From an uncultured Clostridia bacterium (lineage in GTDB: Bacteria > Bacillota > Clostridia > Oscillospirales > CAG-272): a stretch of DNA of 64,000 nucleotides. Of the stretch, positions 9,171 to 62,342 are shown one piece after another. A program made the position numbers and the translations under genes. A model generated the notes under the pieces. That model did no database searches. It worked only from the letters and a program-made list of their open reading frames with translations, and was not told the origin of the DNA. The stretch lies in contig CANPFW010000002.1 in NCBI GenBank assembly GCA_947573405.1, forward strand, positions 1,695 to 65,694, written 5' to 3'. The stretch's first letter is position 1. Every line of letters starts with the position of its first letter.

Positions 9171-9446
9171 CCCCCAGCAAAGGAAGGTGACTCGCCGCAG
9201 TTCCCACCAAACTTCATATGCCTCCCCCCCGCAAAGGGAGGTGGCGCGGCGCAAGCCGCGTCGGAGGGATTGTCCACGTATTACTTCCAATTTTGTTGAT
9301 CCTGCAAAATGACAGCAAAACAATCCCTCAGTCACAGCAGAGCTGTGACAGCTCCCTTTACACAAGGGAGCCTTTTTGTGTTTTATACTCCGCGACAGTT
9401 CCCCATGGAACCACGTAGTGGATCCTCGCATGGAAGCCTTTTTGTA
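9171..9446 (+). repeat. mosaic intergenic repeat, locus R1 (modules A-A-B-C-D-E-G)
   Basis: Arms GGAGGGATTGT 9263-9273 and ACAATCCCTC 9320-9329 (46-nt spacer). B hairpin CGCGGC-GCAA-GCCGCG. D hairpin GTCACAGC-AGA-GCTGTGAC. E module GCTCCCTTTACACAAGGGAGC+T5. G box CCACGTAGTGGATCCTCGCATGG. Confidence 0.9.
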
Positions 9447-9510
9447 TTTGTGCTCCTCTGATCTCTCCCCTTACGAAACCAAACAAAAAGAGGGGCATAT
9501 GCCCCTCTTT

Positions 9511-10455
9511 TTAATAAAACGTAGCCACTGCGGGATCCGGTTCTGCTGCCGGTTCAACCTTCTGGGCCAGCAGTACCGGCCCTTCCCCGGCATAAACCTT
9601 ATGATTCTTCACCTGAATCTCACCCGTCACCGTTACCCAATCGTAGCTTTTGCAGTCATCGCTTCTGCCCCATTTGCAGATCATCGCGCTGAACTGAATG
9701 TCCTCCGCACAGCAGGTCATCACATGCCGTCCGGCAAACATCCAGCCTGTTCCCAAGCTTTTTTCTTTTGCCACCATTGCTTTGAACTGTACTGTTTTAC
9801 CATGATACGCGGGCAGGTTCTCGCATAAATCCCGATAAAACAATGCATAATCCCTGTCCTCGATTACGATAACCGGTGCTTCCATATCATACGGCAGCGG
9901 ATCCTCGATATCATCACAGATTGTTTCCCCGTTGACATTTTCATATATAATCGCCGCCATACGGGAAAGCCCCCGCACCGCCTTGTGCAAGTCCATGTAG
10001 TCCGCGCCAACTGCCATACGGTTGAAAATAATCATATCCGCGCTTTGAATTTTATCAACCACCAAGCTGCGCATATTCTGATTGTACATAGAAAATGTAG
10101 TGGAATCAAAGAACAAAATCTGCTGACCAATAATCCAATGCTCCGGTGCAGCATTATATAGCGCAGACAACTGCCACATGCCGTTGTATTCTACAAGAAT
10201 TTTAGTTGCGTCGTGCTTTTTCTGCAATTTAATCAGTGATTCCGGTGAAAGCTGTTCCGCATCGGAGATTTCCTCTAAATATACATCCTGTGAAGCAAAC
10301 TCTGTAGGATCCAGTTCCACCTCCCCGGATTCGCAGAGCAGTACCAGAATCCGCTCTCCCTCGCAAAAACGCTTGTCCATAAGGGTTTCCTGTATAAATG
10401 TTGTTTTTCCCGATTCCAAAAACCCTGTCACCAGGTAAACAGGTGTATCTTGCAT
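9511..10455 (-). CDS. divergent G3E-family (CobW/HypB/UreG-like) P-loop GTPase fused to a C-terminal CC-x-x-D domain (DUF1980/TIGR03943-like)
   Basis: Walker A GFLESGKTTF. No CxCC motif. The C-terminal ~110 aa contain GRHVMTCCAEDIQF, which I recall as the R..(I/M)TCCA.D signature of DUF1980-type proteins. The domain call is from memory. Confidence 0.6.
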   Translation of the reverse strand: MQDTPVYLVTGFLESGKTTFIQETLMDKRFCEGERILVLLCESGEVELDPTEFASQDVYLEEISDAEQLSPESLIKLQKKHDATKILVEYNGMWQLSALYNAAPEHWIIGQQILFFDSTTFSMYNQNMRSLVVDKIQSADMIIFNRMAVGADYMDLHKAVRGLSRMAAIIYENVNGETICDDIEDPLPYDMEAPVIVIEDRDYALFYRDLCENLPAYHGKTVQFKAMVAKEKSLGTGWMFAGRHVMTCCAEDIQFSAMICKWGRSDDCKSYDWVTVTGEIQVKNHKVYAGEGPVLLAQKVEPAAEPDPAVATFY

Positions 10456-10483
10456 AATTTTGTGCCTTTCCTTTAGTTATATA

Positions 10484-11516
10484 TCAATCAAACAGGGCGT
10501 CCAGCGCATCTTCCTGCAATCCGGAGCCAATCACGCAAAGCCGTCCGGTAACAGCAGCCGTACCAATTCGGACATCCGCTTCTCCGGGGGTATAATCAAA
10601 GTGGAACCAGCCCTCATCCCCCGGCACAATCCCTTTCGCACGCAGTACCATACCGAACCGGCTTTCATTGGAAAGTTCATGCAAAATTTCTGTAAGTTTT
10701 TCACGGGTATAGTGCGCCGCCGTTTCTTTGCCCCAGCTTACATCCACAGGTACATTCTTCCCCATGATCGTAATGGTGGTGATGTTCATGTGCATCATGA
10801 TCGTGCCCGCAGCAGCATTCTTCACCGTGGTGATGATGTTCGTGCCCATTATGATCATGGTGGTGATGCTCGTGAGACGCTCCACAAACGGGACATGCCT
10901 CTTCTGCATCCAACAAAGACGCCTGGGGCTTTTCCACTGCCTCCAGAATTTGTTTGCCGGTAAGCTGTGTCCATGGAGTGGTAACAATCAGTGCATCCTG
11001 ATTTTTCTCTTTTAGGAGAGCAAGGCAGTCTCTGACTTTTCCCTCTGCCATATCATCCGTGTGACTGAGTACAATCGTTTTTGCATGGATGATCTGATCG
11101 TTGAAAAACTCACCGAAATTTTTCATATACATTTTGCACTTCTTCGCGTCTACAACAGTCGTACATCCGCTGAGCACCAGCCCTTGGTCGGAAACACCCT
11201 CCACGGCACGAATCACATCGGACAGCTTGCCCACCCCGGAGGGTTCAATCAGAATCCGATCCGGCGCATAATCCTTATATACCTGCATCAAAGCAGTGCT
11301 GAAATCTCCAACCAATGAACAACAGATACAGCCGGCATTCATTTCACGCACCTGTACCCCAGCTTCCTGCAAAAATCCGCCGTCGATACTGATATCGCCA
11401 AACTCGTTTTCTATGATCACCAGTTTTTCACCGGCATACGCTTCAGCAATCAATTTTTTAATAAGCGTAGTTTTGCCTGCGCCGAGGAATCCGGAAAAAA
11501 GATCAATTTTCGTCAT
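10484..11516 (-). pseudogene. COG0523/CobW-family metallochaperone GTPase, interrupted by a +1 frameshift after the His-rich tract
   Basis: Walker A GFLGAGKTTL, GCICCS and the His/Cys-rich tract HEHHHHDHNGHEHHHHGEECCCGHDHDAHEHHHHYDHGEE are in the frame of track ORF 10701..11588. The CobW_C-like end (VDVSWGKETAAHYTREKL...GRLCVIGSGL) is in the frame of track ORF 10484..10987. Removing one G of the GGGG run (C4 on + strand, 10760-10763) joins them: CAT GGG AAG AAT GTA CCT GTG GAT = HGKNVPVD. The length is 1033 nt = 3n+1. ATG at 11516 with GGAGG 7 nt upstream. Confidence 0.75.
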
Positions 11517-11730
11517 TATAAAGCCTCCTAACCTGCCACCGCCTGTTTGGGCACACAGGATCATCTTCAATATCTGTACAGCTTTCACTGCACTATAATA
11601 AATATTGTATCACTTTCTATCGGACAATGCAAGATGCCCGGTAATTTTAATGATACCATTGTAATAAGAGTAATAAGCTTTCACCCCGATAAAAAGAGAT
11701 AGCTTTTCGTTAGATCCCATAAAGCTTTAT

Positions 11731-12020
11731 AAGCCCCCCTAGCAAAGGGGGGTGATCCGCCGTAGATCTACCAATTTTCACAAGCCTCCCTTGTGCTGGA
11801 GCCGCATAGCGGATCCTAGGGTGGTGACTCGCCGTAGGCGAGGCGGAGGGATTGTTAAGCAATGCTGCCGATTTATTGATCCTGTAAAATGATAGCATCA
11901 CAATCCCCCAGCCTCCGCTTCGCAGAGGCAGCCCCCTTTGCACAAGGGGGCCTTTTCATGTGCACGCTTACTTCGCGACAGCTCCCTATAGAATCACACA
12001 GTGGATCCTCACATGGGATT
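11731..12020 (+). repeat. mosaic intergenic repeat, locus R2 (A-A/G-B-C-D-E-G)
   Basis: Arms GGAGGGATTGT 11845-11855 and ACAATCCCC 11900-11908. B hairpin CTCGCC-GTA-GGCGAG. E variant GCCCCCTTTGCACAAGGGGGC. G boxes CCGCATAGCGGATCC (left) and CACACAGTGGATCCTCACATGG (right). Confidence 0.9.
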
Positions 12021-12050
12021 GTCCACGCACTGCAGCACGCACAAATCACA

Positions 12051-12080: not shown

Positions 12081-12087
12081 GACTTAC

Positions 12088-17665: not shown

Positions 17666-17768
17666 AACCGGATCCTTTCGTACGCAGTATCTGCGTCTAC
17701 TGCCCATAGGCAGTTCTTTTCTAATGTATCATTATATCCTACCCATGCCGGATTGTCAAGTGCGGGAA

Positions 17769-18065
17769 GGTTTGCACAGCAAAACTCAGAGGGATTGTGT
17801 GAGCAGTACTGCCGATTGGCAGATCATTCAAAATGATCGTTTAACAATCCCCACCCGCTGCGCGGGAGTTCCCTTTACTGGGGGAAACCCAAACCAAACC
17901 CAAGCCTCCCTTGTGTAAAGGGAGGTGGGTTTTGCACAGCAAAACCCGGAGGGATTGTCCGAGTAGTACTGCCTATTTTGGGATCCTGCAAAATGATCGT
18001 ATAACAATCCCTCAGTCACAGCAAAGCTGTGACAGCTCCCTTTACACAAGGGAGCCTTTTTGTTG
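17769..18065 (+). repeat. mosaic intergenic repeat, locus R3: two tandem cores (B-C-D-F then A-B-C-D-E)
   Basis: Core a: AGAGGGATTGT 17788-17798 / ACAATCCCC 17844-17852, with D = CCCGC-TGC-GCGGG. Core b: GGAGGGATTGT 17948-17958 / ACAATCCCTC 18004-18013, with B = GGGTTTTGC-ACA-GCAAAACCC and D = GTCACAGC-AAA-GCTGTGAC. Confidence 0.9.
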
Positions 18066-20970: not shown

Positions 20971-21101
20971 GGTCCTCCCAGCAAAGGGAGAATCACGAAG
21001 TATCCAGCTTAAGAAGGCCCCCTTGTGCGGTGGTTCGAAAACGAACCACTGGGGCATCCCGCGTTAGCGGGTGAGGGATTGTCTTGCTATCATTTTGCAG
21101 G
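20971..21101 (-). repeat. mosaic intergenic repeat, locus R4 (inverted orientation; one arm only)
   Basis: GAGGGATTGT at 21073-21082 followed by ..ATCATTTTGCAGG (reverse complement of CCTGCAAAATGAT). Carries the rare GTGGTTCG-AAAA-CGAACCAC insertion also present in R5. No second arm before the apbE stop. Confidence 0.85.
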
Positions 21102-21127
21102 AACTTCATATCGACTGCCCTTTCAGA

Positions 21128-22183
21128 TTATTCCTCTATCATAATAGAAGCAAAACCGTCCGTATAATATAAATTGCCCTCTGCGTCAATCCAGGCAGCC
21201 TCCACATCTGCAATGCTGTCAACCAACGCTTTACCGCCCTCATATGTCATATTAAACACCGCAGTGGAAAGCGCATCTGCCATGCCTGCATCCCTGCAGA
21301 CAATGGATACGGAAACAAAACGGTTTTCCGGATACAGTGTGTCCGGATGAATGATATGATGATACCGCTCTCCGTCTACCATATAATACCGCTGATAGGA
21401 ACCGCTGGTCACCAGCGCCAGATCTGTCAGTGCAACCCGGCAGATAGATGCATCCTGCGCGCTCAGATCCGGATTTTGAATGCCCGCAGTCCAGGGAGTT
21501 CCGTCTCCTTTTGTTCCGATAGTGCGCACATTTCCTCCAATACTGAATGCCAGATGATCCCAGCCCATCTCTTCTGCCGCCAAAGCGATTTTTTCCGTAG
21601 CATATCCTTTTGCAATGGAACCGACGTCCAACTGCATTTTCGAATCAGATAAATACACTGTATGCTCCGCCCGATCTATAATAATCCCAGATATGTCCAT
21701 ATGCTGTGCCGCATCCTCCAATTCCTCACGGCTTGGCAAAGCGGCACGCTCTGGGCTCTCCGCACCAGCTTCTCTGTACGTATGCCAGATAGAGAGCACA
21801 CTCCCCATTGCCGCGTTTGTGAATCCATCTGTGACCCGGTACATTTCTATGCAATATTCCAGCAAATCCAAAATCCGTTCGTCAACGGATACCGGGCGCA
21901 CACCGGCATTATCGTTGATTGTTTTCAGATTGTTTATCCCATCGTAATCATGGTAAATATCATAAAGCTGATGATATTCCTCCAAAAGCTGCAGCAGCTT
22001 GTCTGTTTTGGCGTCAAACGCCTCTTTGGATGTATCAAATCCGGTAATCACCGCCACCGTATCGAATAAATCGAAAGAGGAACGGGAATAACGGTTCAAG
22101 TGGGTATTACTATCGCTGCCGCAGCCCGGTAAAACAGACAGAATCATTATCAGAGAGATCAGGAAAAAAGGATATTTTTTCAT
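21128..22183 (-). CDS. apbE: FAD:protein FMN transferase (ApbE family), lipoprotein
   Basis: Start at MKKYPFF (22183); the track ORF extends to 22276. Lipobox LSVLPGC. ApbE blocks DVGSIAKGYA and YHHIIHPDT. Confidence 0.9.
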   Translation of the reverse strand: MKKYPFFLISLIMILSVLPGCGSDSNTHLNRYSRSSFDLFDTVAVITGFDTSKEAFDAKTDKLLQLLEEYHQLYDIYHDYDGINNLKTINDNAGVRPVSVDERILDLLEYCIEMYRVTDGFTNAAMGSVLSIWHTYREAGAESPERAALPSREELEDAAQHMDISGIIIDRAEHTVYLSDSKMQLDVGSIAKGYATEKIALAAEEMGWDHLAFSIGGNVRTIGTKGDGTPWTAGIQNPDLSAQDASICRVALTDLALVTSGSYQRYYMVDGERYHHIIHPDTLYPENRFVSVSIVCRDAGMADALSTAVFNMTYEGGKALVDSIADVEAAWIDAEGNLYYTDGFASIMIEE

Positions 22184-22263
22184 ATGTGCAGTATGCCTTT
22201 CCCGGCTTTTGATTTTCTTTTTTGTGTAGGCAGGTGGTGCGAAAGCACCGTTAAACTTTATAA

Positions 22264-22496
22264 ACCTCTCCAGCAAAAGGGAGGTGGGCTTTGCGCATCA
22301 AAGCTTGGAGGAATTGTCAAGCCAAACTGCCGATTTGCAGATCCTGCAAAATGATAGCATGTGCATACAATCCCTCACCCGCTTCGCGGGATGCCCCAGT
22401 GGTTCGTTTTCGAACCACCGCACAAGGGGGCCTTTTAATGTGGGTGCCGCGCGGAAATTTCCTATGGAGCCACGTAGTGGATCCTCACATGGAGGA
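22264..22496 (+). repeat. mosaic intergenic repeat, locus R5 (A-B-C-D-insertion-E-G)
   Basis: Arms GGAGGAATTGT 22307-22317 and ACAATCCCTC 22367-22376 (49-nt spacer). B = GCTTTG-CGCAT-CAAAGC. D = CCCGC-TTC-GCGGG. Extra hairpin GTGGTTCG-TTTT-CGAACCAC. G box CCACGTAGTGGATCCTCACATGG. Confidence 0.9.
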
Positions 22497-22565
22497 CGTT
22501 TGATCAGCGCACGCCTTTTCACAGATACAAATGCAGGGATCCTGCTTTGCAGGATCCCTTTTCTA

Positions 22566-23712: not shown

Positions 23713-25938
23713 TTACGATTTCTTTTGTATGATTTCTATTTTCCAGTCCCCATTTTTCAGTTTATCCAAAATGGGCGCATCTTGTGCAACACACAAAGTA
23801 GTTGTTTTTTCAAAGGCATCCGGAGCAATATCTGTAATTTCTATAGGAAGCGTTAGCTTTGAAAGGCTGGTGCAGCCACTGAAAATCATACTGTCAACAG
23901 CAGCGAGAGAATGAGGCAGCTGCACCTGTGTAAGCGCACTGCAATTCTGAAAAGCGCCAAATCCCAGAGCTGTGAGTCCCTCTCCCAATACTGCTGACTG
24001 CAAGGATCCACAGTCGGCAAAAGCGTGCATCCCGATCAGTGCCGCATTGCCGGTATCCACTGTTTTCAGCTTCGCCCCGCGAAACGCGCCTGCATCAATC
24101 TTTTTTACCTTTGCCGGAACCCGATAGCTTTGCTGCTGCAATCCCGCCGGATAAAAAATCAGCGTTTCCCCGTTTGCAGAGAACAAAACGCCCCCGACAA
24201 CAGAATAATTAGAATCATAACCGGAAATCCGGATATCCGTAAGCGATGTGCATCCGTCAAAAATCCCTGCCGAAACCTGTACAGCAGTAAACAACCCCAG
24301 TGACTGCAGTTTTTCCATATTAGCAAAAGCACCGTCTCCAATTACGGTAACGCTTTTGGGAATATCCAAATACTGAACGGCAGTGCAGCCCGCGAAGGTC
24401 CGCTCCCCTATAGATTCCAAAGAAGTTGGCAGCGAAATTTTGCCCAGTTCTGTACATCCTTCAAAAGCATGATTTTCCACAGAAATGACCCCATAGGGAA
24501 TATTTGCAAGCGTCATACCGGTGCAGTCTGCAAAAGCACTCTCTCCGATTTGCTGCACGCTGTCAGGAATCACCGCTTCCCGCAGCGATATGCATCCGCT
24601 GAACATTCGGGCAGGAATTTTTGCAGTCCCTATGGGAAGAGCATATGCAGACAGTCCGGTGCAGCCGCTGAAAACGCCTTCCCCCAGAACATCTATATTA
24701 CTAGGAAGCTGTACCTCTGTAAGTCCGGTGCAGTTTGTATATGCCTCATCCTCCACGCGAAGAATCCGACCGGTCAGACCGGTTTCCGTAAGACCGGTGC
24801 AGTCTGCAAACAAACGGGCAGGAATTTCCACTGCATTTTCCGGAATCGGCGGAACTGTAAGAGAAGCACAACCTGCAAACGTACCTTCTCCCAATACAGT
24901 ACTTTGATTTTCATAAGTCACATTAGTTAGAGAAGCACATTCTGCAAACAACTCTTTTCCAAGAGTAAGTGTTTTTCCGCCAAAAGATGCGCTGGAAAGA
25001 GTAGTACAGTCGGCAAAAGCCCGCTCCCCCACATTCAGACAGTCTACTTGCACAGTCCGGACAGCGGTGCACCCCGCAAAGGCGCCCTCCCCGATAGAAT
25101 CCGCATCGGGAACGGTAATATTTAAAAGAGACGTACAATTTTCAAAAGCGCTCTGTCCGATTTTCGATACAGCGTCAGGCAGGATTAAATCTGACCCAAG
25201 CGCACCGCAATTTTGAAAAGCACAGGTACCGATAGAAGTGATTTTCTCCCCAAAAGGAAGGGATACAAGAGCAGTGCAGTTCTGAAACGCATATGCACCA
25301 ATATGGAGAAGATCATCTCCTGCAACGGATACAAGAGACGTGCATCCGGAAAAAGCGCCGTAAGAAAGTTCCTGCACACCGCCAAGGACTGCGTCTGACA
25401 GCTGCGTACATCCTTCAAAAGCACGCACACCGATCTGCTGCACATCAGCTCCCACTGTTACCGATGCAATCTGCGTCACATGAGAAAATCCCTCATCTGC
25501 AATGCCTGTCACTGCTTCTCCGTCAAAGGTATCAGGGATAATCAGATCAATAGATGCTTCTTTTGTATAATCGGGATTCCAAGACAGCATTCCATCTGCA
25601 AAGACAAGCCACGGCGCTTCTTTTCCGGTAAGAGCAGTTGTATTTTTCTGTACATGCTTTCCGGAAAATAGATTGCCGAACCGCAGAGAAAAGGCCGCTG
25701 CGCCAGCAATCACCACCAAAACGCACACCGCAATAATCCAAAGCTGCCGTTTTGCCCCGCGCCGGACTTGTTTATTTATCCCAATCGGATCAGCCACGCT
25801 TGGCATTGGCTGTTCCGGTTTATCCGTCTGTTCAAAAGGACTTTCCTGTGCCCAGTCCATCCGCGCCTGCAGTGCATCAGCATCTAAATTCCCCAATGTG
25901 CCGGACTGTTCCCTGTTTTCGCTCTGTTCGTCTTTCAC
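23713..25938 (-). CDS. BspA-type leucine-rich-repeat (LRR_5) surface protein with N-terminal membrane anchor
   Basis: Start proposed at GTG 25938 (GGAGGG 7 nt upstream); the track ORF extends to 26007. TM LWIIAVCVLVVIAGAAAF. More than 15 repeats of the ~23-aa unit I...AF..C..L..v.lP..v..Ig..AF..C. Confidence 0.8.
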   Translation of the reverse strand: MKDEQSENREQSGTLGNLDADALQARMDWAQESPFEQTDKPEQPMPSVADPIGINKQVRRGAKRQLWIIAVCVLVVIAGAAAFSLRFGNLFSGKHVQKNTTALTGKEAPWLVFADGMLSWNPDYTKEASIDLIIPDTFDGEAVTGIADEGFSHVTQIASVTVGADVQQIGVRAFEGCTQLSDAVLGGVQELSYGAFSGCTSLVSVAGDDLLHIGAYAFQNCTALVSLPFGEKITSIGTCAFQNCGALGSDLILPDAVSKIGQSAFENCTSLLNITVPDADSIGEGAFAGCTAVRTVQVDCLNVGERAFADCTTLSSASFGGKTLTLGKELFAECASLTNVTYENQSTVLGEGTFAGCASLTVPPIPENAVEIPARLFADCTGLTETGLTGRILRVEDEAYTNCTGLTEVQLPSNIDVLGEGVFSGCTGLSAYALPIGTAKIPARMFSGCISLREAVIPDSVQQIGESAFADCTGMTLANIPYGVISVENHAFEGCTELGKISLPTSLESIGERTFAGCTAVQYLDIPKSVTVIGDGAFANMEKLQSLGLFTAVQVSAGIFDGCTSLTDIRISGYDSNYSVVGGVLFSANGETLIFYPAGLQQQSYRVPAKVKKIDAGAFRGAKLKTVDTGNAALIGMHAFADCGSLQSAVLGEGLTALGFGAFQNCSALTQVQLPHSLAAVDSMIFSGCTSLSKLTLPIEITDIAPDAFEKTTTLCVAQDAPILDKLKNGDWKIEIIQKKS

Positions 25939-26103
25939 AAAAAGCCCTCCCTTCCAAGCATGCATTCCTCTTATACATATGATAGCATACCACAAATTAA
26001 AACTCAATACTGCATAAAATGATTTTTCTTCTATACAGGGAATTCGTGGGAACCTTGCCCTCCAATAAGGAGAAGTGGCACAACACAGCTTCTACCAATT
26101 CCA

Positions 26104-26340
26104 AAGCCTCCCCTGTGCGAGGGGAGAAATCGCTGCAGTTCCACTAAACTTAAGCCTCCTTTGTGCAAAAGGAGGTGGATTGCCGCAGGCGAGACGGAGG
26201 AATTGTATAAGCTACATTACCGATTTGAAGATCCTGCAAAATGATAGCCGGAACAATCCCTCCGTCACAGCAAAGCTGTGACAGCTCCCTTTACTGGGGG
26301 GAGCCTTTTTATATGGGTGCTCCACGAGAGCTCTATGCCA
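26104..26340 (+). repeat. mosaic intergenic repeat, locus R6 (A-A-B-C-D-E/F)
   Basis: Arms GGAGGAATTGT 26196-26206 and ACAATCCCTC 26253-26262. D = GTCACAGC-AAA-GCTGTGAC. Confidence 0.9.
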
Positions 26341-27580: not shown

Positions 27581-28070
27581 AAAAAGGCTCCCACATAGGG
27601 AGCCAAATCCCCCCTTGTGCAAAGGGGGGATTTTTTAATTTAATGCTGTACAACAAGTTCTCTATGGAGACACGTAGTGGATCCTCACATGGGAGCCAGT
27701 ACGAACTAAAGCCTCCTTTGTGCAAAAAGAGGTGGCACAGCCTAATCATCCACCAATTCTAAGCCCCCCTTGTGCAAAGGGGGGTGTCACACCGCAGGCG
27801 TGACGGGGGGATTGTTTCGTTAGACAGCCGATTTGAAGATACTACAAAACGATAGTTTTACAATCCCTCAGTCACAGCAAAGCTGTGCCAGCCCCCTTTG
27901 CACAAGGGGGCCATTTTTAATATGAGTGCTACGCGGGAGTTCCCTTTGCTGGGGGGAGCCTTTTTAATATGGGTGCTACGTGGGAGCCCCCTTTGCTAGG
28001 GGGGAGCCTTTTATTGGTACAAGCTATGCCGTCTCCCTTTGGAGCCGCACAGCGGATCCTCCTCACATGT
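27581..28070 (+). repeat. mosaic intergenic repeat, locus R7: ~490-bp array (E-like, A, G, A, A, B, C, D, E, F, F, G)
   Basis: Arms GGGGGGATTGT 27805-27815 and ACAATCCCTC 27860-27869. G boxes at ~27660-27697 and ~28040-28070. Two tandem F units at 27921-28010. Fills essentially the whole 525-bp convergent intergenic region. Confidence 0.9.
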
Positions 28071-28093
28071 AGTCTTTTTGTTGTGCTTTTTCC

Positions 28094-34496: not shown

Positions 34497-34830
34497 GCCT
34501 CCCTTGTGCAAAGGGAGTGGCTTGCCCTTTCTCCTATGTAAGCCCCCCTTGTGCAAAGGGGGGTGTCGCGGCATAGCCGTGACGGGGGATTGTTTACATA
34601 GACTGCCGATTTGCAGATTGTCCAAAGTGATCGTTTTACAATCCCTCAGTCGCTACCGCGACAGCTCCCTTTGCACAAGGGAGCCTTTTTATATTTGTGC
34701 TGCGCGGCAGCCCCTTTGCCGGGGGCCTTTTATAGTTTGCGCTGTACGACAGTTCCTTTGCCGGGGGCCTTTTTATAGTTTGCGCTGTGCGGGAGTTCTC
34801 TATGGAGCCACGTAGTGGATCCTCACATGA
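34497..34830 (+). repeat. mosaic intergenic repeat, locus R8 (A-A-B-C-D-E-F-F-G)
   Basis: Arms GGGGGATTGT 34584-34593 and ACAATCCCTC 34638-34647. B = GTCGCGGC-ATA-GCCGTGAC. D = GTCGC-TACC-GCGAC. Two tandem F units. G box CCACGTAGTGGATCCTCACATG. Confidence 0.9.
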
Positions 34831-34841
34831 GACTTTTTCGT

Positions 34842-38030: not shown

Positions 38031-38277
38031 GGCTTCCCCAGCAAAGGGAACTGCCACAAACGCTCGCCAAACTTCATTAGCCTCCCCCCAGCAAAGGGAG
38101 GTGGGCTTTGCGCAGCAAAGCTCGGAGGGATTGTCTAAACAATACTGTCGATTTGAAAATTATCCAAAATGATAGAAGGACAATCCCTCAGTCGCTTCGC
38201 GACAGCTCCCTTTGCACAAGGGAGCCTTTTTATTGGTGCGGACTGCGCGGATGCCCCCTCTGCTGGGGGGAGCCTTT
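38031..38277 (+). repeat. mosaic intergenic repeat, locus R9 (A-A-B-C-D-E-F)
   Basis: Arms GGAGGGATTGT 38124-38134 and ACAATCCCTC 38180-38189 (45-nt spacer). B = GCTTTGC-GCA-GCAAAGC. D = GTCGC-TTC-GCGAC. E = GCTCCCTTTGCACAAGGGAGC+T5. Confidence 0.9.
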
Positions 38278-38322: not shown

Positions 38323-38351
38323 TTGACAGCAGGAAAAATCTGTGCTACAAT
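38323..38351 (+). promoter_or_regulatory. sigma-A promoter of the lysine-riboswitch/dapA operon
   Basis: TTGACA (38323-38328), 17 nt, TACAAT (38346-38351), immediately upstream of the L-box P1 strand. Confidence 0.7.
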
Positions 38352-38353: not shown

Positions 38354-38511
38354 CCGCAACACGGTAGAGGTGCATTGTGTCAAAAGTACTGCGGATGCAA
38401 AAGGGTTGACCGCCCGTTGTCAGCAGGAAAGGGGCAAATGCCGAAGGAAGACTGGAGTCGCGTCTGTCCTGGTTTGGATGAATAAGATCATCCCGACTGT
38501 CGCTTTTGCGG
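38354..38511 (+). promoter_or_regulatory. lysine riboswitch (L-box) aptamer
   Basis: P1 strands CCGCAA (38354-38359) / TTGCGG (38506-38511). Conserved L-box blocks GGTAGAGGTGC, AGTA, GAAAGGGG, GCCGAAGG, CTGG and ACTGTC in the canonical order. Located upstream of dapA-dapB-lysA. Confidence 0.85.
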
Positions 38512-38552
38512 AGAGCTATCTGAATTCTACAGGAATATCAGTTTGTTTGCAG

Positions 38553-38583: not shown

Positions 38584-38649
38584 CCGGGAAATGCAAAAAT
38601 GCGCCGGACTTTGGAAAAAATATTTTATGTTCAGGAAAGCGAGAACAAC

Positions 38650-39537
38650 ATGAAAAAAACAATTTTTAAGGGAATCGCCACCGCGCTGATCACGCCCTTC
38701 AGTGCAGAAGGGATCGACTACGAGCAGTTCGGGCGTATCATTGACTGGCAGATTGAATCCGGCATCAACGCGCTGGTCGTCTGCGGCACCACCGGCGAAG
38801 CTTCCACCCTCACCGATGACGAGCACCGGGATGCCATTGCCTTTGCCGTCAAGCGTGCCGCAGGCAAGGTGCCCATTATTGCAGGCACCGGCTCCAACGA
38901 TACCGGATATGCGCGGGATCTGACCCGCTGCGCCTGTGAGGCAGGGGCGGACGCGGTACTGGTGGTAACGCCTTATTACAACAAGGCAACCCAAAAGGGA
39001 CTTGTAAAAATGTTCACCGACATTGCAGATATGAGCGACGCACCTGTGATTCTATATAACGTTCCATCCCGCACCGGCGTAAATATTGAACCGGATACCT
39101 ACCGTATTTTAGCAGATCACGAAAACATCTGCGGCATTAAAGAAGCAAACGGCAATCTTTCCAAAATCGTGGAAACCATGTCCTATGTTTACGGCAAGCT
39201 GGATCTGTATTCCGGAAACGATGATCAAATTGTACCGCTCATGTCCGTAGGCGGAATCGGCGCAATCTCCGTTCTTTCCAACGTGCTCCCGAAAGAAACC
39301 TGCCAGATTGCAGAAAAATTCTTTGCAGGGGATATCCACGGCGCGGCACAGCTTCAGTATCAGTACCATGCGCTCATCAGCGCCCTTTTCTCTGAAGTAA
39401 ATCCCATTCCCGTAAAAGCTGCAATGGCTGCAATGGGATTCTGTGAAAACACGCTGCGTCTGCCGCTGACTCCCATGGATGAAGCCAAAGAAGCAGCTAT
39501 GCTGCAAATTATGCGTACACACGGACTGATTTCATAA
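38650..39537 (+). CDS. dapA: 4-hydroxy-tetrahydrodipicolinate synthase
   Basis: Start at MKKTIFKGIATALITPF. GTTGE motif and an active-site Lys region (GIKEANG). Confidence 0.95.
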   Translation: MKKTIFKGIATALITPFSAEGIDYEQFGRIIDWQIESGINALVVCGTTGEASTLTDDEHRDAIAFAVKRAAGKVPIIAGTGSNDTGYARDLTRCACEAGADAVLVVTPYYNKATQKGLVKMFTDIADMSDAPVILYNVPSRTGVNIEPDTYRILADHENICGIKEANGNLSKIVETMSYVYGKLDLYSGNDDQIVPLMSVGGIGAISVLSNVLPKETCQIAEKFFAGDIHGAAQLQYQYHALISALFSEVNPIPVKAAMAAMGFCENTLRLPLTPMDEAKEAAMLQIMRTHGLIS

Positions 39538-39553
39538 AGCAAAGGAATACGAT

Positions 39554-40297
39554 ATGACAAAAATGATTCTAAACGGCGCAGGCGGACGGATGGGTGCCGC
39601 AGTGCGCGAGCAAGTTGCAGCAAGCGCGGACGATACAATCCTCTCTGCGGAAATCGACAAGTTTTCAGAAGCGTTCACCCTGCACAATATTGCAGATTAT
39701 AAAGGAGAAGCCGACGTCATCATCGACTTCTCCCACCACAGCGCCGTCCGCGAGTTGATTTCTTATGCGCTTGGGCGCTCCCTCCCCATTGTGCTTTCGA
39801 CTACCGGTCACACAGAGGACGAAAAAGCGCTGATTTATGAAGCGGCAAAATCCGTTCCGGTATTCTATTCTGCCAACATGTCCCTCGGCATCGCCGTATT
39901 GGCAGATTTCGCCCGCCGGGCTGCAGCACTGCTTCCCGATGCAGATATTGAAATTGTAGAAATTCATCACAATCGGAAGCTGGACGCCCCCAGCGGCACC
40001 GCGCAAATGATCGCCGACGAGATGAAAACAGTGCGCCAGAATGCAGAATTTGTATACGGCAGGCACGGAATGGGCAAGCGTGCCCCCGAAGAAATCGGTA
40101 TTCACGCCCTGCGCATGGGCAATGAAGCCGGCACCCACCAGGTAATTCTCTCCACAGACTATCAAACCATCCGGCTGGAGCACAAAGCGGAATCCCGCGC
40201 CGTTTTTGCGGAAGGCGCCATCTCCGCCGCAAAATTCCTTATCGGCAAACCGGCAGGACTGTACGATATGAAAAGCATGGTCAGCCTCTCCGTTTGA
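39554..40297 (+). CDS. dapB: 4-hydroxy-tetrahydrodipicolinate reductase
   Basis: EIVEIHHNRKLDAPSGTA signature block. Confidence 0.95.
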   Translation: MTKMILNGAGGRMGAAVREQVAASADDTILSAEIDKFSEAFTLHNIADYKGEADVIIDFSHHSAVRELISYALGRSLPIVLSTTGHTEDEKALIYEAAKSVPVFYSANMSLGIAVLADFARRAAALLPDADIEIVEIHHNRKLDAPSGTAQMIADEMKTVRQNAEFVYGRHGMGKRAPEEIGIHALRMGNEAGTHQVILSTDYQTIRLEHKAESRAVFAEGAISAAKFLIGKPAGLYDMKSMVSLSV

Positions 40298-40336
40298 CCG
40301 CCCTGCTACACATTCCAAATAGAAAAGAGAAAATAT

Positions 40337-41632
40337 ATGCTTCACAAAAATTTATCCGTTAATGAAGAAGGGCATCTGACCCTTGCAGGCGCAGATACCG
40401 TTGCCCTTGCAGAAAAATACGGCACGCCGCTGTATCTCATGGATGAAAACCGCATCCGGGAAAATTGCCGTGTATATATCGACGCAATGCGCAAATATAT
40501 GGGAGAAGGTTCCCGTCCGATTTTCGCCAGCAAATCCTGCTGTTTCAAACGGATTTACGCAATCGTTGCAGACATGGGCATGGGTACGGATATTGTGTCC
40601 CCCGGCGAGCTGTATACAGCAAATGCTGCAGGATTTCCTATGGAAAATGCATTTTTCCACGGCAACAACAAAACAGATGCGGATATTGAATATGCTATGG
40701 AAACAGGCATCGGCTGCTTTATCGTAGACAACCGGGAAGAATTGGACGCAGTCAACGCCTGCGCCGCACGGCGGGGAATCAAACAAAAGATTCTGCTGCG
40801 GCTTACTCCCGGAATTGATCCCCACACCCAGAAAAAAATCTCCACCGGAAAAGTGGATTCCAAATTCGGAACCGCCATTGAAACCGGACAGGCACTGGAA
40901 CTTTGTAAATACGCACTGGGGCTTCCCGCAGTAGAATTGGACGGATTCCATTGCCATATCGGATCCCAGATTTTCGACTACTATCCCTTCCGGGATGCAG
41001 CGGAAATTATGCTGCGTTTTATCCGCACGCTGTTGGACGAATGCGGTCACGAAATTCACACTCTGAATCTGGGCGGCGGATTTGGCGTGCGCTATGTAGA
41101 GGGCGATCCGGAAATTGATTATGAGGCAAACATCCGGGGGCTTGCAGGAGAAATCCAGCGCATCTGTGCAGAGCTTTCCATCCGGCAGCCGGATATTCTC
41201 ATGGAACCGGGACGAAGCATTGTCGCCGACAGCGGCATGACGCTGTATACGGTAGGCAGTGTAAAAACCATTACCGGATATAAAAGCTATGTATCCATTG
41301 ACGGCGGCATGACCGACAACATCCGGTATGCTTTGTACGAATCAGATTACACCGCGCTCCTTGCAAACCGTGCAAAAGATCCGGCAGATTTCTGTGCGAC
41401 GATCGCCGGGCGGTGTTGTGAGAGCGGCGACATTATTCAAGAGGATGTGATGCTGCCCCGCCCTGTTCGGGGGGACACGCTGGCCGTACTAGTTACCGGC
41501 GCATATAACTACGCCATGGCGTCCAACTACAACCGAATTCCCCGTCCTCCTGTAGTAATGCTGCGGGACGGAAAGGATTATGTTGCTGTGCGCAGAGAAT
41601 CCTACGAAGATTTGTGCCGCAACGATATGTGA
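40337..41632 (+). CDS. lysA: diaminopimelate decarboxylase
   Basis: Fold-III PLP decarboxylase blocks (FASKSC, HCHIGSQ, EPGRSIVA, CESGD). Confidence 0.95.
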   Translation: MLHKNLSVNEEGHLTLAGADTVALAEKYGTPLYLMDENRIRENCRVYIDAMRKYMGEGSRPIFASKSCCFKRIYAIVADMGMGTDIVSPGELYTANAAGFPMENAFFHGNNKTDADIEYAMETGIGCFIVDNREELDAVNACAARRGIKQKILLRLTPGIDPHTQKKISTGKVDSKFGTAIETGQALELCKYALGLPAVELDGFHCHIGSQIFDYYPFRDAAEIMLRFIRTLLDECGHEIHTLNLGGGFGVRYVEGDPEIDYEANIRGLAGEIQRICAELSIRQPDILMEPGRSIVADSGMTLYTVGSVKTITGYKSYVSIDGGMTDNIRYALYESDYTALLANRAKDPADFCATIAGRCCESGDIIQEDVMLPRPVRGDTLAVLVTGAYNYAMASNYNRIPRPPVVMLRDGKDYVAVRRESYEDLCRNDM

Positions 41633-41647: not shown

Positions 41648-41804
41648 AAAAAAGGCTCCCTTGTGCAAAGGGAGCTGTCGCGGTAGCGACTGAGGGATTG
41701 TCTATCTATCATTTTATATAATCTTCAAATTGATAGTCTGACTTAACAATCCCTCCGTCATGCCTATGGCATGCCACCTCCCTTTACACAAGGGAGGCTT
41801 TTTG
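41648..41804 (-). repeat. mosaic intergenic repeat, locus R10 (only complete core in inverted orientation)
   Basis: On the + strand: AAAAAAGGCTCCCTTGTGCAAAGGGAGC (E reversed), GAGGGATTGT 41692-41701, ACAATCCCTCC 41746-41756, then CCACCTCCCTTTACACAAGGGAGGCTTTTTG (A reversed). As placed, both ends present hairpin+T-run terminators toward the convergent lysA and prmA genes. Confidence 0.9.
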
Positions 41805-48805: not shown

Positions 48806-48996
48806 AAAAAGGCTCCCCATTAAAGGAAGCCTTTTTATAATCCAAGTCTCCCCCAGTAAAGGGAGGTGGGCTTTGCGCAGCAAAGCTCGGAGGGATTGTT
48901 TGCATAGACTGCCAATTTGAAGAATATCCGAAATGATCGAAGGACAATCCCTCAGTCGCTTCGCGACAGCTCCCTTTGCACAAGGGAGCCTTTTTC
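48806..48996 (+). repeat. mosaic intergenic repeat, locus R11 (E-like, A-B-C-D-E)
   Basis: Arms GGAGGGATTGT 48889-48899 and ACAATCCCTC 48944-48953. The B and D hairpins are identical to R9 (GCTTTGC-GCA-GCAAAGC; GTCGC-TTC-GCGAC). Confidence 0.9.
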
Positions 48997-51910: not shown

Positions 51911-51964
51911 CTCGGCAAAGGGAGGTGAATCGCCGCATAGCGGATCCTCACATGGGAGCCTTTT
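51911..51964 (+). repeat. mosaic intergenic repeat, locus R12 (fragment: half A plus G box)
   Basis: CAAAGGGAGGTG followed by CCGCATAGCGGATCCTCACATGGGAGCC. No C core. Confidence 0.75.
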
Positions 51965-52004
51965 GAATGGATGTTGCGTCGGCAGTTCCCTTACTCAATA
52001 TAGT

Positions 52005-57330: not shown

Positions 57331-57558
57331 AGCCCCCCCTTGTGTAAAGGGGGGTGGCATGCCGTAGGCATGTCGGAGGGATTGTTTCACTATGCTATCA
57401 ATTTGCAGATATTGACAAACGATAACTTTACAATCCCTCCGTCTCCGCTTCGCGGAGCCAGCTCCCTTTGCACAAGGGAGCCTTTTTATTTGTGCGAGGT
57501 TGCGCGTCACCTTCCCTTGCTGGGGCTTGAATCGGTGTAATGGATCCGCACATAGGGG
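57331..57558 (+). repeat. mosaic intergenic repeat, locus R13 (A-B-C-D-E-F-G)
   Basis: Arms GGAGGGATTGT 57375-57385 and ACAATCCCTC 57430-57439. B = GGCATGCC-GTA-GGCATGTC. D = CTCCGC-TTC-GCGGAG. Confidence 0.9.
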
Positions 57559-57578
57559 TTTCAGGCTGATAAAGCTTC

Positions 57579-58935: not shown

Positions 58936-59027
58936 AAAAAGCCTCCCTTGTGAGAAGCCGCTGCGTGGCTCCATATGGGACTTCCGCGTAGCAACAATAA
59001 AAAAGGCTCCCTTTACACAAGGGAGCC
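58936..59027 (-). repeat. mosaic intergenic repeat, locus R14 (fragment; E and G-like modules inverted)
   Basis: AAAAAGCCTCCCTTGTG (half A), GTGGCTCCATATGGGA (G-like, inverted) and AAAAAAGGCTCCCTTTACACAAGGGAGCC. The last, read on the minus strand, is a hairpin plus T6 terminator 68 nt after the DMT gene stop. Confidence 0.7.
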
Positions 59028-59094: not shown

Positions 59095-60009
59095 TCATGA
59101 TTCTTTTCGTACCTTTTCAGGAAGCTGTGCACATATAATTGCTGCAAACATAAGTACACAGCCAGCCCATTCCCTGCCAGTGGGAATCTGATGCAAAACT
59201 ACAATTCCACCCAGCACAGCAAACACAGATTCAAAGCTCATCAGCATGGACGCAATAGCAGGAGCCGTTCTCTGCTGTCCTAAGATTTGCAGTGTGTAGC
59301 CCACTCCGCTGGACAGAACGCCCACATATAGAATCGTCATCCAACCGTCCAGAATCTGCTGCCAACTGGGAGATTCAAACAAAAACATTCCAATCGCCGC
59401 CAGCACACCGGACACAAAAAATTGGATACAGGAAATCTGAACGCCATCAAGTCCCGGTGCAAGATGATCGATCACCAAAATATGCAAAGCCCAAAATACT
59501 GCGCCGCATAGTACAATTCCATCACTGGGCGAAAAAGAAAATCCCCCGGTAATACACAGAAGGTACAATCCGCAGAGCGCAGCAAGCACGCATATCCAAA
59601 TGCGCACCGGAAGCTTTTTCCCGCGAAAAAGACCGAACAGGGGAACCAGCAGAATATATGTAGCAGTGATAAATCCTGCTTTTCCGCCGGAAGTGCCGAG
59701 CGCAATGCCGTATTGCTGCAGCATCGCTGCAGCAAACATAACAACGCCGCAAATTGCTCCTGCAAAAATCACTTTCTTACGCACTGCCCGATCCTGCTGT
59801 CCGGAAGCGTGATATTTTTTCCGCGTTCTGCTGTTTACTAAAATCAACGGAATTAGTACTGCACCGCCCACAAAGCTGCGTGCCGCCTGAAAGGTAAGAG
59901 GCCCCATATAGTCCATGGCCTCGCTTTGCGCCACAAAGGAAAGCCCCCATATTATGGCAGTAACCAGCAGCATTATATTTCCGATTGCCTTTGTATGTCC
60001 CCGAATCAT
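59095..60009 (-). CDS. DMT-superfamily (EamA) transporter
   Basis: Start at MIRGHTK (60009), ATGA overlap with the upstream gene stop. About 10 predicted TM helices in two EamA halves. Confidence 0.85.
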   Translation of the reverse strand: MIRGHTKAIGNIMLLVTAIIWGLSFVAQSEAMDYMGPLTFQAARSFVGGAVLIPLILVNSRTRKKYHASGQQDRAVRKKVIFAGAICGVVMFAAAMLQQYGIALGTSGGKAGFITATYILLVPLFGLFRGKKLPVRIWICVLAALCGLYLLCITGGFSFSPSDGIVLCGAVFWALHILVIDHLAPGLDGVQISCIQFFVSGVLAAIGMFLFESPSWQQILDGWMTILYVGVLSSGVGYTLQILGQQRTAPAIASMLMSFESVFAVLGGIVVLHQIPTGREWAGCVLMFAAIICAQLPEKVRKES

Positions 60010-62057
60010 CCGCGCACTCTCTTCCGGGCAGGACGCCGTCTGGTACTGTCGCACTGCCGATAATCGAAAATGGGCGGAACAGGTGCAGTCTCCCGGTCAA
60101 AGGGTAAACCGTCCCGGGCAGCCTTCTTTTCTGCAATTTCCAGATACATATTTGTAATGCTCAGTTCTCCCTCACGTATATCGGGAAGAACCACACCGCC
60201 GCCGGCATACAATGCTGCTTCCGCCTGTTCAATATGACCGAGACGAATATGTGCCTGGGTGGTATAAAGCTGCACTCTTCCAACCGTCTGCATTTCCGGA
60301 GTCATTCCCTGGGCAAGCTCCAGTGCGTCTTCATACATTTCCGCACCCACAAGCAGTTCCATTGCTTCCTTGGCAAGAGAAATATCTGTAGGACGCATCC
60401 GATATGCGCGGGCGGCAAGTGCTGCCGCAGCCGCACGGTTTCCAAGCTGCTGTTTTACATACACCAGACCGTAAACTGCCCAGCAGGAAGGATTCAGCAT
60501 CATAGATTTTTCCAGAAGCTGCTCCGCATCAGACAAGCGGTTCATACACAAGTAGGTTACGCCAAGCTGCAAATGCGCATACCAGGAGAACAGATTCCCA
60601 CCGGATACAGCATTCTCCATCATACGCACCCATTCCTTTTGCAGCATCCAAGAAGGAGGCACCTGCGCCGGATCGTGCTCCGGGAAGAATCCCCGCTGCA
60701 GCAGGCATACCCAATCCGCCTGCTCTACACCTACCATTCCGAAATCCAAATGAGGCGCCATCGCGGGGCGGCCTTCCTTTTCCCGGCGCATATTTTCGAG
60801 AGCTCCCCAACCGCTTCCGGAAAGAATCAACTCCCCGTCTGCGGCAGCTTTCGCCATCGCTTTTGTTTCTTCCAGGATCCGGTCCATTTCATCATCAGTA
60901 ATAATATCGTTCAAGCGATTGCGGATTTCTGCTTTTGCACCTTCCCATTCACCGTGCACCGTATCACCGTCCGCATGCATTGCACCATACGCTTCCAGCC
61001 ACTCCCATGTTGTATTGGGCGGCATGGGAATGCACTCATACTGTGTATGCGCAAGTCCCGCCTGAAGTTCTATATACCGATCGTTGCTGCCGTCCTCGGT
61101 AAGATACTCCTGCCACCGGTCACCGCCGGGATTTTGTCCCCAGCAGAACAGCTTTCTGCCTTGGAGCCGCATAGTAGACGTATGGATCAGTCCATATCCG
61201 TCCGCATCCACAGCCGCTTCAAATTTTCTTTTCTTAGGCGGAATGTTATAGAAATAATCTCCCGCTGCGGGCACGTTGATAGGATAAGTCACATCATCCC
61301 CATTATATTCGGGAATGGGAGCAAGGCTGGTATTATTGTCCGCCACATATGCGCCGTCTGCATCGACTATAATCCGGGTGTCCGGTGTTTCCGGCACAGC
61401 GATATTACTCCACCAGTACATAGGAATCACATCAGGCAGGGGATTGATAATCCGGTTGCGGGCAAAAAGCACCTTGGATCCTGCAGGAAGGAAGAAATCC
61501 ATTTGCTGAACCACCTGACGAATCCGTTCAAACTCATACATACGCAGCACAGGTGTGCCATCTGCAAGCTTGGTCGTGGTGGTAAACATCGGCTCACAGG
61601 TATGCACATGGTGCCCAAACATTCCACAGTTCCATTCCACACCGCCGGAAGTCCAAGCATTGCGGAACGCCAAATTGCAGGGACGCATTACGGAATTTTT
61701 ATATAAAAGATCTCTGCCGCTCTCTTTATCAAACAGAGACATAAGCTTTCCGCCCCACTGGGGAAGAAAAGTGGCTTTCAAATATTCATTTTCCAAAACC
61801 ACCGCCATCATTTCCGTATCATGGAGAGGGCGGGTATACATATCCTGCATCCGATAGGGAAACGGGGACGGTACGTGACCATAGCCGATAAACAGTTCAT
61901 CGTCTTCGGAAAGACCGGAATCTCCATTTCTATGCCAAAAATTGAGTTTCGCCAGCGGCGGCAGGGAAGATTCCCCGTTCATATGCTGGCAGGGCATAGT
62001 GATGGTAGTAATCTGCAAATTGGTAGGCATATGTGCTTGCTCCTTTAACATGTACAA
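60006..62057 (-). CDS. large cytoplasmic protein: DUF5107-like N-terminal domain plus C-terminal TPR repeats
   Basis: 683 aa, no signal peptide. The C-terminal ~200 aa are TPR-like (YAHLQLGVTYLCMNRLSDAEQLLEKS..., AYRMRPTDISLAKEA...). The DUF5107 call for the N-terminal part is from memory and uncertain. Confidence 0.55.
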   Translation of the reverse strand: MYMLKEQAHMPTNLQITTITMPCQHMNGESSLPPLAKLNFWHRNGDSGLSEDDELFIGYGHVPSPFPYRMQDMYTRPLHDTEMMAVVLENEYLKATFLPQWGGKLMSLFDKESGRDLLYKNSVMRPCNLAFRNAWTSGGVEWNCGMFGHHVHTCEPMFTTTTKLADGTPVLRMYEFERIRQVVQQMDFFLPAGSKVLFARNRIINPLPDVIPMYWWSNIAVPETPDTRIIVDADGAYVADNNTSLAPIPEYNGDDVTYPINVPAAGDYFYNIPPKKRKFEAAVDADGYGLIHTSTMRLQGRKLFCWGQNPGGDRWQEYLTEDGSNDRYIELQAGLAHTQYECIPMPPNTTWEWLEAYGAMHADGDTVHGEWEGAKAEIRNRLNDIITDDEMDRILEETKAMAKAAADGELILSGSGWGALENMRREKEGRPAMAPHLDFGMVGVEQADWVCLLQRGFFPEHDPAQVPPSWMLQKEWVRMMENAVSGGNLFSWYAHLQLGVTYLCMNRLSDAEQLLEKSMMLNPSCWAVYGLVYVKQQLGNRAAAAALAARAYRMRPTDISLAKEAMELLVGAEMYEDALELAQGMTPEMQTVGRVQLYTTQAHIRLGHIEQAEAALYAGGGVVLPDIREGELSITNMYLEIAEKKAARDGLPFDRETAPVPPIFDYRQCDSTRRRPARKRVRG

Positions 62058-62145
62058 TATGTGGTCAGTTTACCACATTCCGCGGTATAAAGTCAAGATT
62101 TGTCCAATTCTTTGTTGGGGCGCACAGAAATTTGCAGGATATAAG

Positions 62146-62342
62146 AAGGCTCCCTTGTGTAAAAGGGGGGGTGGCGCGGCGCAGCCGCGACGGGGGGATT
62201 GTTGCGCTATACTGCCGATTTATAAAAATCTAAAATGATCGTATTACAATCCCTCACCCGCTCCGCGGGAGCTCCCTTTGCTGGGGGGAGCCTAATGAAG
62301 TTTATGCTTCTCGTGGGAGCCCCCTTTACCGGGAGAACTTTT
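62146..62342 (+). repeat. mosaic intergenic repeat, locus R15 (A-B-C-D-F-F)
   Basis: Arms GGGGGGATTGT 62192-62202 and ACAATCCCTC 62246-62255 (43-nt spacer). B = CGCGGC-GCA-GCCGCG. D = CCCGC-TCC-GCGGG. Confidence 0.9.

Follow-up and report, generated by a model that had tools for sequence, protein, structure and literature searches.

Why do nearly all copies of an intergenic repeat run the same way along a chromosome, in gaps between genes of every direction? The question is raised by a stretch of 64,000 nucleotides from an uncultured Clostridia bacterium of the Oscillospirales (assembly GCA_947573405.1, contig CANPFW010000002.1, positions 1,695 to 65,694). This stretch, referred to below as the window, comes from a mouse-gut species and carries 13 complete copies of an element made up of five hairpins, A-B-C-D-E. 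A preliminary description of the window, made from its letters, had proposed an orientation locked to the chromosome strand. The current analysis points, with moderate confidence, to a repeat of the REPIN or BIME type whose orientation would represent an equilibrium between flipping and selection. Two independent effects on orientation have been identified, one of a proxy for replication direction and the other of the strand on which the E-side gene of the element lies, and orthologous copies have been found inverted in place between species.

Copies of the element and their anatomy

The core of the element was searched for with a pattern in which a left arm close to GGAGGGATTGT is followed, after 35-60 nt, by the right arm ACAATCCCTC. 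Thirteen complete cores are recognised, starting at positions 9263, 11845, 17788, 17948, 22307, 26196, 27805, 34583, 38124, 41691, 48889, 57375 and 62192, and the arm motif has 27 matches in the window against 1.2 expected by chance. A whole-element nhmmer profile, for which the 13 copies and their flanks were aligned, scores 101-148 bits on the right strand and 20-71 bits on the wrong one, so that the two orientations are clearly separated. As the preliminary description had stated from the cores, 12 copies are on the plus strand and one, R10 (41649-41800), is inverted (two-sided binomial p = 0.0034). About 9 kb more on each side, from the same species, adds one plus and one minus copy, which gives 13:2 for the 15 copies in about 82 kb. 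All the copies in the window are intergenic.

The gene contexts were taken from our own gene list (codon log-likelihood caller) and partly from gene calls with Pfam labels for 24.8-45.5 kb, and they agree with those described previously. Five of the plus copies, all of them complete, are flanked by two minus-strand genes: R2 (11782-11957), with a small hairpin module inside the loop of hairpin A; R5 (22263-22436), with a hairpin nested within E; R8 (34540-34690), between a minus-strand radical-SAM gene and recX; R13 (57333-57487); and R15 (62146-62296). Three more, again complete, lie in convergent gaps, namely R1 (9218-9377; 129.5 bits), behind the plus-strand gene at 8020-9132, R7 (27761-27917), which is followed by small hairpin-plus-T modules at 27939-28004, and R11 (48844-48995). 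The divergent gaps hold a tandem pair consisting of the degenerate R3a (17753-17890; 101 bits) and the complete R3b (17902-18061; 138.8 bits), as well as the complete copies R6 (26152-26310) and R9 (38079-38231), the last being placed between the recA promoter and the promoter of a lysine-riboswitch operon. The inverted R10 (148 bits) occupies a convergent gap. All these copies were placed by nhmmer, R1 and R2 also from the alignment. Two incomplete copies have been identified in addition: a truncated inverted copy on the minus strand at 21011-21141, recognised in the sequence as E'-D'-C arm with part of the centre (55.9 bits, model positions 42-153), and a plus-strand remnant of the right half of the core (ACAATCCCTCAGCC) at 4290-4330, between pth and mfd.

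The core forms the middle of a quasi-palindromic mosaic of about 155 nt, as seen in the alignment of the 13 copies. Hairpin A reads GCCTCCC-TTGTGYAAA-GGGAGG and hairpin E reads GCTCCC-TTTRCACAA-GGGAGC, the latter being followed in the window's lineage by a run of T residues (T5). Hairpins B and D have variable stems, the loop of B being of the GCGYAGC type, while hairpin C consists of the left arm, a lineage-specific centre of 45-60 nt and the right arm. A is the reverse complement of E except for the closing pair, and the loops of B (GCGYAGC, GTAA, GAA) are the complements of those of D; the right half is therefore read as an inverted and slightly altered left half. The similarity of the half made up of the right C arm, D and E to the inverted half made up of A, B and the left C arm is about 75%. 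The orientation of the element is defined solely by the centre and a few conserved differences between the halves. From its sequence the element appears to be an inverted doublet of a unit of about 55 nt around an asymmetric centre, and hence a mosaic repeat similar to REPINs and BIMEs.

In 18 copies analysed with RNAalifold all five hairpins are recovered, and 9 pairs have compensatory changes. Folding as single-stranded DNA (ssDNA) gives z-scores of -3 to -11, and in many copies an outer A:E stem encloses B, C and D, as exemplified by R3b (-47.8 kcal/mol, z = -11), in which the outer stem is combined with the B, C and D hairpins. A pairing of A with E as a conserved long stem was considered and rejected, for the loops, inspected by eye over the copies compared, are without A-E covariation. 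A and E are accordingly taken as two oppositely oriented members of one hairpin family that are independent of each other; an A:E stem can still form as a fold of ssDNA. Readings of the element as an IHF site or as an attC-, dif- or KOPS/SRS-like sequence were dropped because it does not match the consensus sequences.

Such conserved folding could suggest a multi-copy structured RNA, either a small RNA gene or a cassette of 3' untranslated region and terminator, which is read from the top strand and oriented by its own transcription unit. The compensatory changes in the five hairpins are in keeping with this, and so are the resemblance of E to an intrinsic terminator on the top strand, a weak top-strand excess of G.U-compatible pairs (38 vs 22 after trimming), the conservation of the arms across families and the mostly sense position of the copies behind genes in distant lineages. 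The stems, however, are almost perfectly Watson-Crick paired on both strands, with only 2-3% G.U pairs, which is typical of DNA palindromes and fits these better than RNA. No conserved promoter (-10/-35) is found on either strand in the centre or upstream of the element in the copies inspected. At the gathering threshold the only Rfam match in the window is the lysine riboswitch, and a permissive scan of R9 gave matches at chance level (E > 1). With a right half that is an inverted copy of the left, a DNA repeat doublet is also a simpler description than an RNA fold, and a structured RNA is considered very unlikely. The metatranscriptome contigs searched are unstranded and broken at repeats, and one run of raw reads gave no matching reads.

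The preliminary description had presented module E as a hairpin with T5 when read on the plus strand. This holds for eight copies (R1, R3b, R6, R7, R8, R9, R11 and R13), where the T-run is on the plus strand alone; R2 and R5 have a T4 run, R3a and R15 have none, and R10 has T-runs on both sides. E with T5 is predicted to act as a terminator on the top strand only. A role as the intrinsic terminator of the adjoining genes has been rejected, as in the five gaps between minus-strand genes and for the four copies in divergent gaps E either has the wrong strand or precedes promoters. It could serve an upstream plus-strand gene solely at R1, R7 and R11 (and R10). Next to R1, R2, R5 and R15 the stop codon of the minus-strand gene is accompanied by a separate hairpin, which is clear and followed by a T-run at R1 and R2, and the earlier statement that a simple terminator role does not explain the bias is borne out. 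The elements are situated between the terminator of one gene and the promoter of the next, or, as at R9, between the recA and lysine-riboswitch promoters.

Orientation, gene direction and replication

The window is likely to belong to a single replichore, as had been suggested earlier. Among its genes 36 of 45 are on the minus strand, 28 of 32 two-kb bins have a negative GC skew, and the coding-strand skew at third codon positions (GC3 skew) amounts to +0.152 in minus-strand and -0.142 in plus-strand genes. Taken together, these three observations indicate that the minus strand carries the leading-strand sequence, that the fork moves from right to left and that transcripts of the plus strand run head-on against it.

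More copies were obtained from three sister metagenome-assembled genomes (MAGs), CASTST01, CATLAS01 and CANTEM01, which have the same type of centre and stand at about 80-93% identity. They contribute 185 complete copies in 78 segments (596 kb), and the density in these genomes and in the window's species is about one copy per 3-5 kb. Replication direction was approximated by the GC3 skew of the neighbouring genes, a proxy independent of gene orientation and calibrated on the window. Raw GC skew, tried on 8-kb loci from many genera, has no relation to orientation (59:64) and was set aside because gene direction dominates the skew at this scale.

Both orientations occur on the long sister contigs; between 1 and 48 kb of contig CASTST1, for example, the copies read ++++++---+++--+++++ in order. 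With respect to the proxy, 123 of 179 sister copies (123:56) have the top strand on the C3-rich strand, which is the polarity of the window, and the ratio is 67:24 where the absolute GC3 skew exceeds 0.1. With one vote for each intergenic region the same polarity is seen in 90 of 133 regions including the window (p = 6e-5) and in 80 of 122 in the sisters alone; with one vote for each segment it is seen in 39 of 52 (p = 4e-4), the three genomes agreeing in sign and the Spearman coefficient being -0.46.

The contribution of gene direction can be read from the sister loci after orienting them by the proxy and counting copies with the top strand on the lagging-strand sequence against those with it on the leading-strand sequence. 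The counts are 21:6 where both flanking genes are on the leading strand, 28:9 where they converge, 10:1 where they diverge and 18:22 where both are on the lagging strand. In a logistic regression the coefficients are -0.87 for the replication proxy (z = -4.9) and -0.54 for the strand of the E-side gene (z = -3.0), while the A-side gene is not significant. The terminator-bearing E end tends to face the 3' end of a gene. On the modelled effects about 10 of the 13 window copies would be expected on the plus strand, and the 12 observed are thus in the upper tail of the same preference.

These counts also bear on the possibility that replication has no influence at all and that the 12 plus copies reflect shared ancestry, local tandem duplication and selection against terminators pointing into downstream genes; with most genes on the minus strand, elements kept antisense to them would look locked to a strand. 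The significant term for the E-side gene would be expected on this account, as would the antisense preference in tandem contexts (49 vs 30) and the orientation of the CASTST1 copies, which follows blocks of gene direction. Local duplication is indicated by the multi-copy intergenic regions, all copies being co-oriented in 23 of 26, and the GC3 proxy itself is questionable in the sisters. Against it, symmetric gaps, in which gene direction is neutral, are biased 7:1 in the window (8 copies) and 38:10 in the sisters, and the proxy is the strongest term even with the gene strands in the model. Pure antisense selection, moreover, predicts for loci with both genes on the lagging strand the mirror image of 21:6, whereas 18:22 is found. 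An explanation free of any replication effect is therefore thought quite unlikely.

Of the lock to the chromosome strand proposed earlier, the correlation with replication direction stands, independently of the gene strands; the lock itself does not, in view of the two orientations on sister contigs and a bias of about 2:1 and not 12:1. The opposite outcome named at the time, an orientation that follows gene strand and not the replichore, applies in part, since the E-side gene matters and the proxy effect persists beside it.

Inversion, gain and loss of copies

Comparison of orthologous sites shows that copies have turned round where they stand. At the R15 site, CATLAS144 and CASTST10 have the same element and flanks as the window, and their centre is the reverse complement of the window's with 2-3 mismatches, the D and B sides being swapped. 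The chimeric left hairpin of R15 (GGCTCCC...GGGGGGT) is just what a crossover between the loops of the terminal A and E hairpins would be expected to leave. R13 is inverted at the same site in CATLAS7 and CASTST10, and R10, the exception in the window, has an ortholog in plus orientation in CASTST76. From such inversions between species it follows that orientation is not a frozen record of insertion. Other sites keep their orientation, R2 in CASTST118 and CATLAS94 and R8 in CATLAS67 and in six strains of 99.2-99.6% identity. In these strains the copies covered (R6-R10) all have the same orientation, and only the small flanking hairpins vary in number.

Copies are also gained and lost. The sites of R5 and R6 are empty in the sister CANTEM3, and the site of R3a and R3b holds three tandem copies in CASTST62. 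In nine pairs of filled and empty sites the inserts are 300-560 nt long and comprise the element with neighbouring modules; no common target sequence and no consistent duplication is found among the nine, one of which has a direct repeat TAAAAA.

An invertible promoter switch (inverton) was considered as well and rejected. Inversions are seen only between species, six strains about 99.5% identical sharing one orientation, and the copies in the window and sisters have neither a conserved promoter in the centre nor an adjoining recombinase gene.

The model put forward in the preliminary description was that the copies are non-autonomous derivatives of ssDNA transposition by an IS200/IS605 TnpA or by a transposase (RAYT) of the kind associated with repetitive extragenic palindromic (REP) sequences, the orientation being set by insertion into the lagging-strand template. 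It would account for a proxy-linked bias that is independent of gene direction and extends to symmetric gaps, and for a hairpin-rich architecture whose terminal duplication is missing at eight of the nine filled and empty sites. The polarity would fit if the bottom strand, which is on the lagging-strand template in the window, were the active one. Targeting of the lagging-strand template is documented for IS200/IS605 elements (PMC6006769), and REP arrays of Pseudomonas fluorescens are oppositely oriented on the two replichores (PMC3116915).

A transposase was searched for by comparing Escherichia coli RayT, using phmmer, with all open reading frames (ORFs) of the window and 273 loci, which together include the 64 kb of the window, about 18 kb more of its own species and about 600 kb of sister DNA. 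Neither the window with these 18 kb nor the 596 kb of the sisters yields a Y1 transposase ORF. The single match is in a distant Oscillospiraceae MAG (locus L021, 7471-7974, plus strand), a 167-residue RAYT-like Y1 transposase homologue with an HIH motif (E = 1.5e-6 to E. coli RayT) situated directly behind a mtnA-like gene and without flanking palindromes or hairpins. At least 502 relatives of this gene have been identified across Clostridia, and RAYT-like genes are common in Oscillospirales, which could be taken in favour of the transposition model. An A- or E-type hairpin is nevertheless present within 3 kb at just 1 of 80 RAYT-like loci of the Oscillospirales. Neither is a conserved target oligonucleotide found beside the inserts, and the proposed link to IS200/IS605 or REP/RAYT systems receives no support from the window and 596 kb searched, the 80 loci or the nine insertion sites. 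Orientation that changes in place after insertion, and a bias of about 2:1, far from absolute, are further difficulties, and the copy-to-copy differences of B and D are hard to square with one hairpin recognised by a sequence-specific transposase. Transposition through ssDNA is considered unlikely as the cause of the bias.

The equilibrium between flipping and selection is the explanation that we favour, with moderate confidence. According to it the element would evolve by tandem duplication and by gain and loss of whole mosaic blocks, and would be turned round on the spot by recombination of its terminal inverted hairpins with each other or by template switching from one to the other. Its orientation would not be set at insertion, and flipping would be balanced against two strand-asymmetric pressures. 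The first would act against copies whose one-way terminator, E with its T-run, points into a downstream gene; we infer that selection of this kind explains the effect of gene direction. The second would favour copies with the top strand on the lagging-strand sequence, where E would stop head-on transcripts and the bottom strand would be exposed on the lagging-strand template. The 12:1 ratio of the window would then represent the upper tail of a preference of about 70-80% within one replichore.

Three sources of the replication-linked pressure can be envisaged. It could be selection for stopping head-on transcription. It could also be an orientation-dependent stability of the quasi-palindrome on the lagging-strand template, palindrome deletion being known to depend on orientation (reportedly shown by Trinh and Sinden in 1991). 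Lastly, it could be a strand-specific generation of the copies through ssDNA.

Several points weigh against this equilibrium. Replication direction in the sisters is derived from GC3 skew alone, and the proxy may be imperfect or may track something else: about 48% of the genes in the sister segments are on the G3-rich strand against 80% in the window, which reflects either a weak gene-strand bias or unusual, element-rich sampled regions. The three sisters share orthologous sites, and the data from these are not fully independent of one another. That E acts as a terminator is a prediction, and the top strand is calculated to fold more stably in 11 of 13 copies by only about 1.3 kcal/mol, a small gap. 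The distant lineages, finally, are weakly biased with respect to the proxy (38/62) and have the element mostly sense behind genes, so that the orientation rule may be lineage-specific.

Some further observations have been made on these genomes. The GC3 skew of the sisters is regionally coherent, with 79% agreement between neighbouring genes, despite about half of the genes being on the G3-rich strand. In the distant lineages (loci L001-L106) the T-run after E is missing and the conserved centre is different. The element there lies mostly sense, directly behind a gene, the A side being next to a co-oriented gene in 46:17 cases, the reverse of the preference for antisense copies seen in the lineage of the window.

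A more ambitious interpretation, to which only a low probability is given, is that of an undescribed, chromosome-wide family of five-hairpin inverted doublets in gut Oscillospirales. The orientation of its copies relative to the fork would be actively kept, either by an ssDNA enzyme acting on the A/E hairpins and C arms or through use as a one-way insulator against head-on transcription, and the copies would flip through their terminal hairpins.

Related repeats, distribution and neighbouring features

The arm pattern has been identified at no fewer than 106 loci spread over many MAGs of the Oscillospirales, among them Faecousia, Vescimonas, Acutalibacteraceae and Ruminococcus. At these loci A, the C arms and E are near-invariant and B, D and the centre vary with the lineage, and the T-run after E is largely confined to the lineage of the window. 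Only two matches were found in viral contigs and none in plasmids. The genes between two copies are ordinary housekeeping genes and include no transposases, and run contigs show spikes of depth where the repeats collapse at the copies. The arm and hairpin sequences, used as search strings, returned nothing relevant from the literature searched.

In behaviour the closest described relatives are REP doublets and the CGTC-tagged repeats without a transposase (PMC3733652). Like the REP, REPIN and BIME sequences of Proteobacteria, the present element consists of extragenic palindromic units in high copy number, which form inverted doublets with a spacer between them. It shares with them mosaic clusters with small hairpins, tandem arrays, intergenic sites often at 3' ends of genes and presence or absence between close species. 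With 15 copies in about 82 kb of the window's species and 185 in 596 kb of sister DNA it agrees with the more than 100 palindromic extragenic copies per genome expected of REPs, and the opposite orientation of REP arrays on two replichores (PMC3116915) is a further likeness. It differs in having a half-unit of two hairpins and an 11-nt arm, and five hairpins in about 155 nt for the whole element. Its arms are conserved across Oscillospirales families, whereas a REP family is usually restricted to one species or genus; the foot of its hairpins lacks GTAG, GTAG/CTAC being present solely inside the loops of B and D. No RAYT flanked by the element is found (80 loci), and the host belongs to a Firmicute lineage.

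The CGTC-tagged repeats described by Di Nocera et al. (2013, PMC3733652) resemble hairpins B and D, which are short GC-rich palindromes with C/A-GTC on the side of the centre, and both kinds are arranged head-to-head with no dedicated transposase detectable. They have been reported in Proteobacteria, Chlorobi, Bacteroidetes, Spirochaetes and Thermotogae, with no Firmicute phylum listed (PMC3733652). Their stems of 8-9 bp, with A/T at the first two positions and a CCA tail, are not seen here; in the present element the GTC belongs to the paired stem, and a larger conserved mosaic surrounds the hairpins.

Miniature elements of the IS200/IS605 type are comparable in having hairpin ends in place of terminal inverted repeats recognised as duplex, no consistent target-site duplication and an orientation that correlates with replication direction, estimated here by the proxy. 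They are unlike the present element in that no TnpA and no conserved target tetra- or pentanucleotide is found for the latter, its bias is about 2:1 and its copies invert in place. The BOX, RUP and SPRITE repeats of pneumococci, bcr1 of Bacillus cereus and the Correia elements of Neisseria are similar in length (about 100-200 nt), modular and intergenic, with hundreds of copies and strong predicted structure. They have no sequence similarity to the present element, and they possess defined terminal repeats and target duplications not seen here, the duplication being TA for Correia and TTTAT for bcr1.

A second repeat family, which usually adjoins the five-hairpin element, has been identified in the window. 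It is a compound hairpin of the ..CTATGGAGCCACGTAGTGGATCCTCACATGG.. type, found at 9385-9445, 11975-12020, 22440-22500, 27655-27700, 28030-28075, 34790-34835, 51930-51965 and 58945-58985. Small hairpins of this type are also nested in the loops of A or E, as in R2 (11800-11830) and in sister copies. Tandem arrays of E-like hairpin-plus-T modules are situated at 27930-28010 and 34700-34790, and their copy number varies between strains that are 99.5% identical. An indel of 45 nt at 34501-34545 is seen also in a run contig.

To the left of R6 (about 25996-26007) two of the six strains (L107 and L110, from 19500 on) differ from the others in that a DUF2089 gene replaces the gene for a 764-residue protein at 23713-26007. 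The breakpoint is the start of the latter gene, about 150 nt from R6. Near R9, the lysine riboswitch (Rfam RF00168, 74 bits) is encoded at 38357-38526 on the plus strand, preceded by a near-consensus promoter at 38323-38351 and followed by the dapA-dapB-lysA operon at 38599-41632. Just to the left of window position 1, a protein of 988 residues with phage tail-fibre-like domains (BppU_N, XkdV_N) is encoded at 8670-11636 of locus L267, next to the gene for a glycosyltransferase at the window's left edge.

Repeat families of this kind are well studied in Proteobacteria, and no comparable family was found described for the uncultured gut Clostridia that dominate mammalian microbiomes. The element provides a natural system in which replication, transcription and self-recombination can be separated as forces acting on the orientation of a quasi-palindrome. 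If the replication-linked bias holds on complete genomes, the element would usefully mark the direction of replication in MAG contigs, and it would point the way to either a new mobilising enzyme or an insulator function against head-on transcription.

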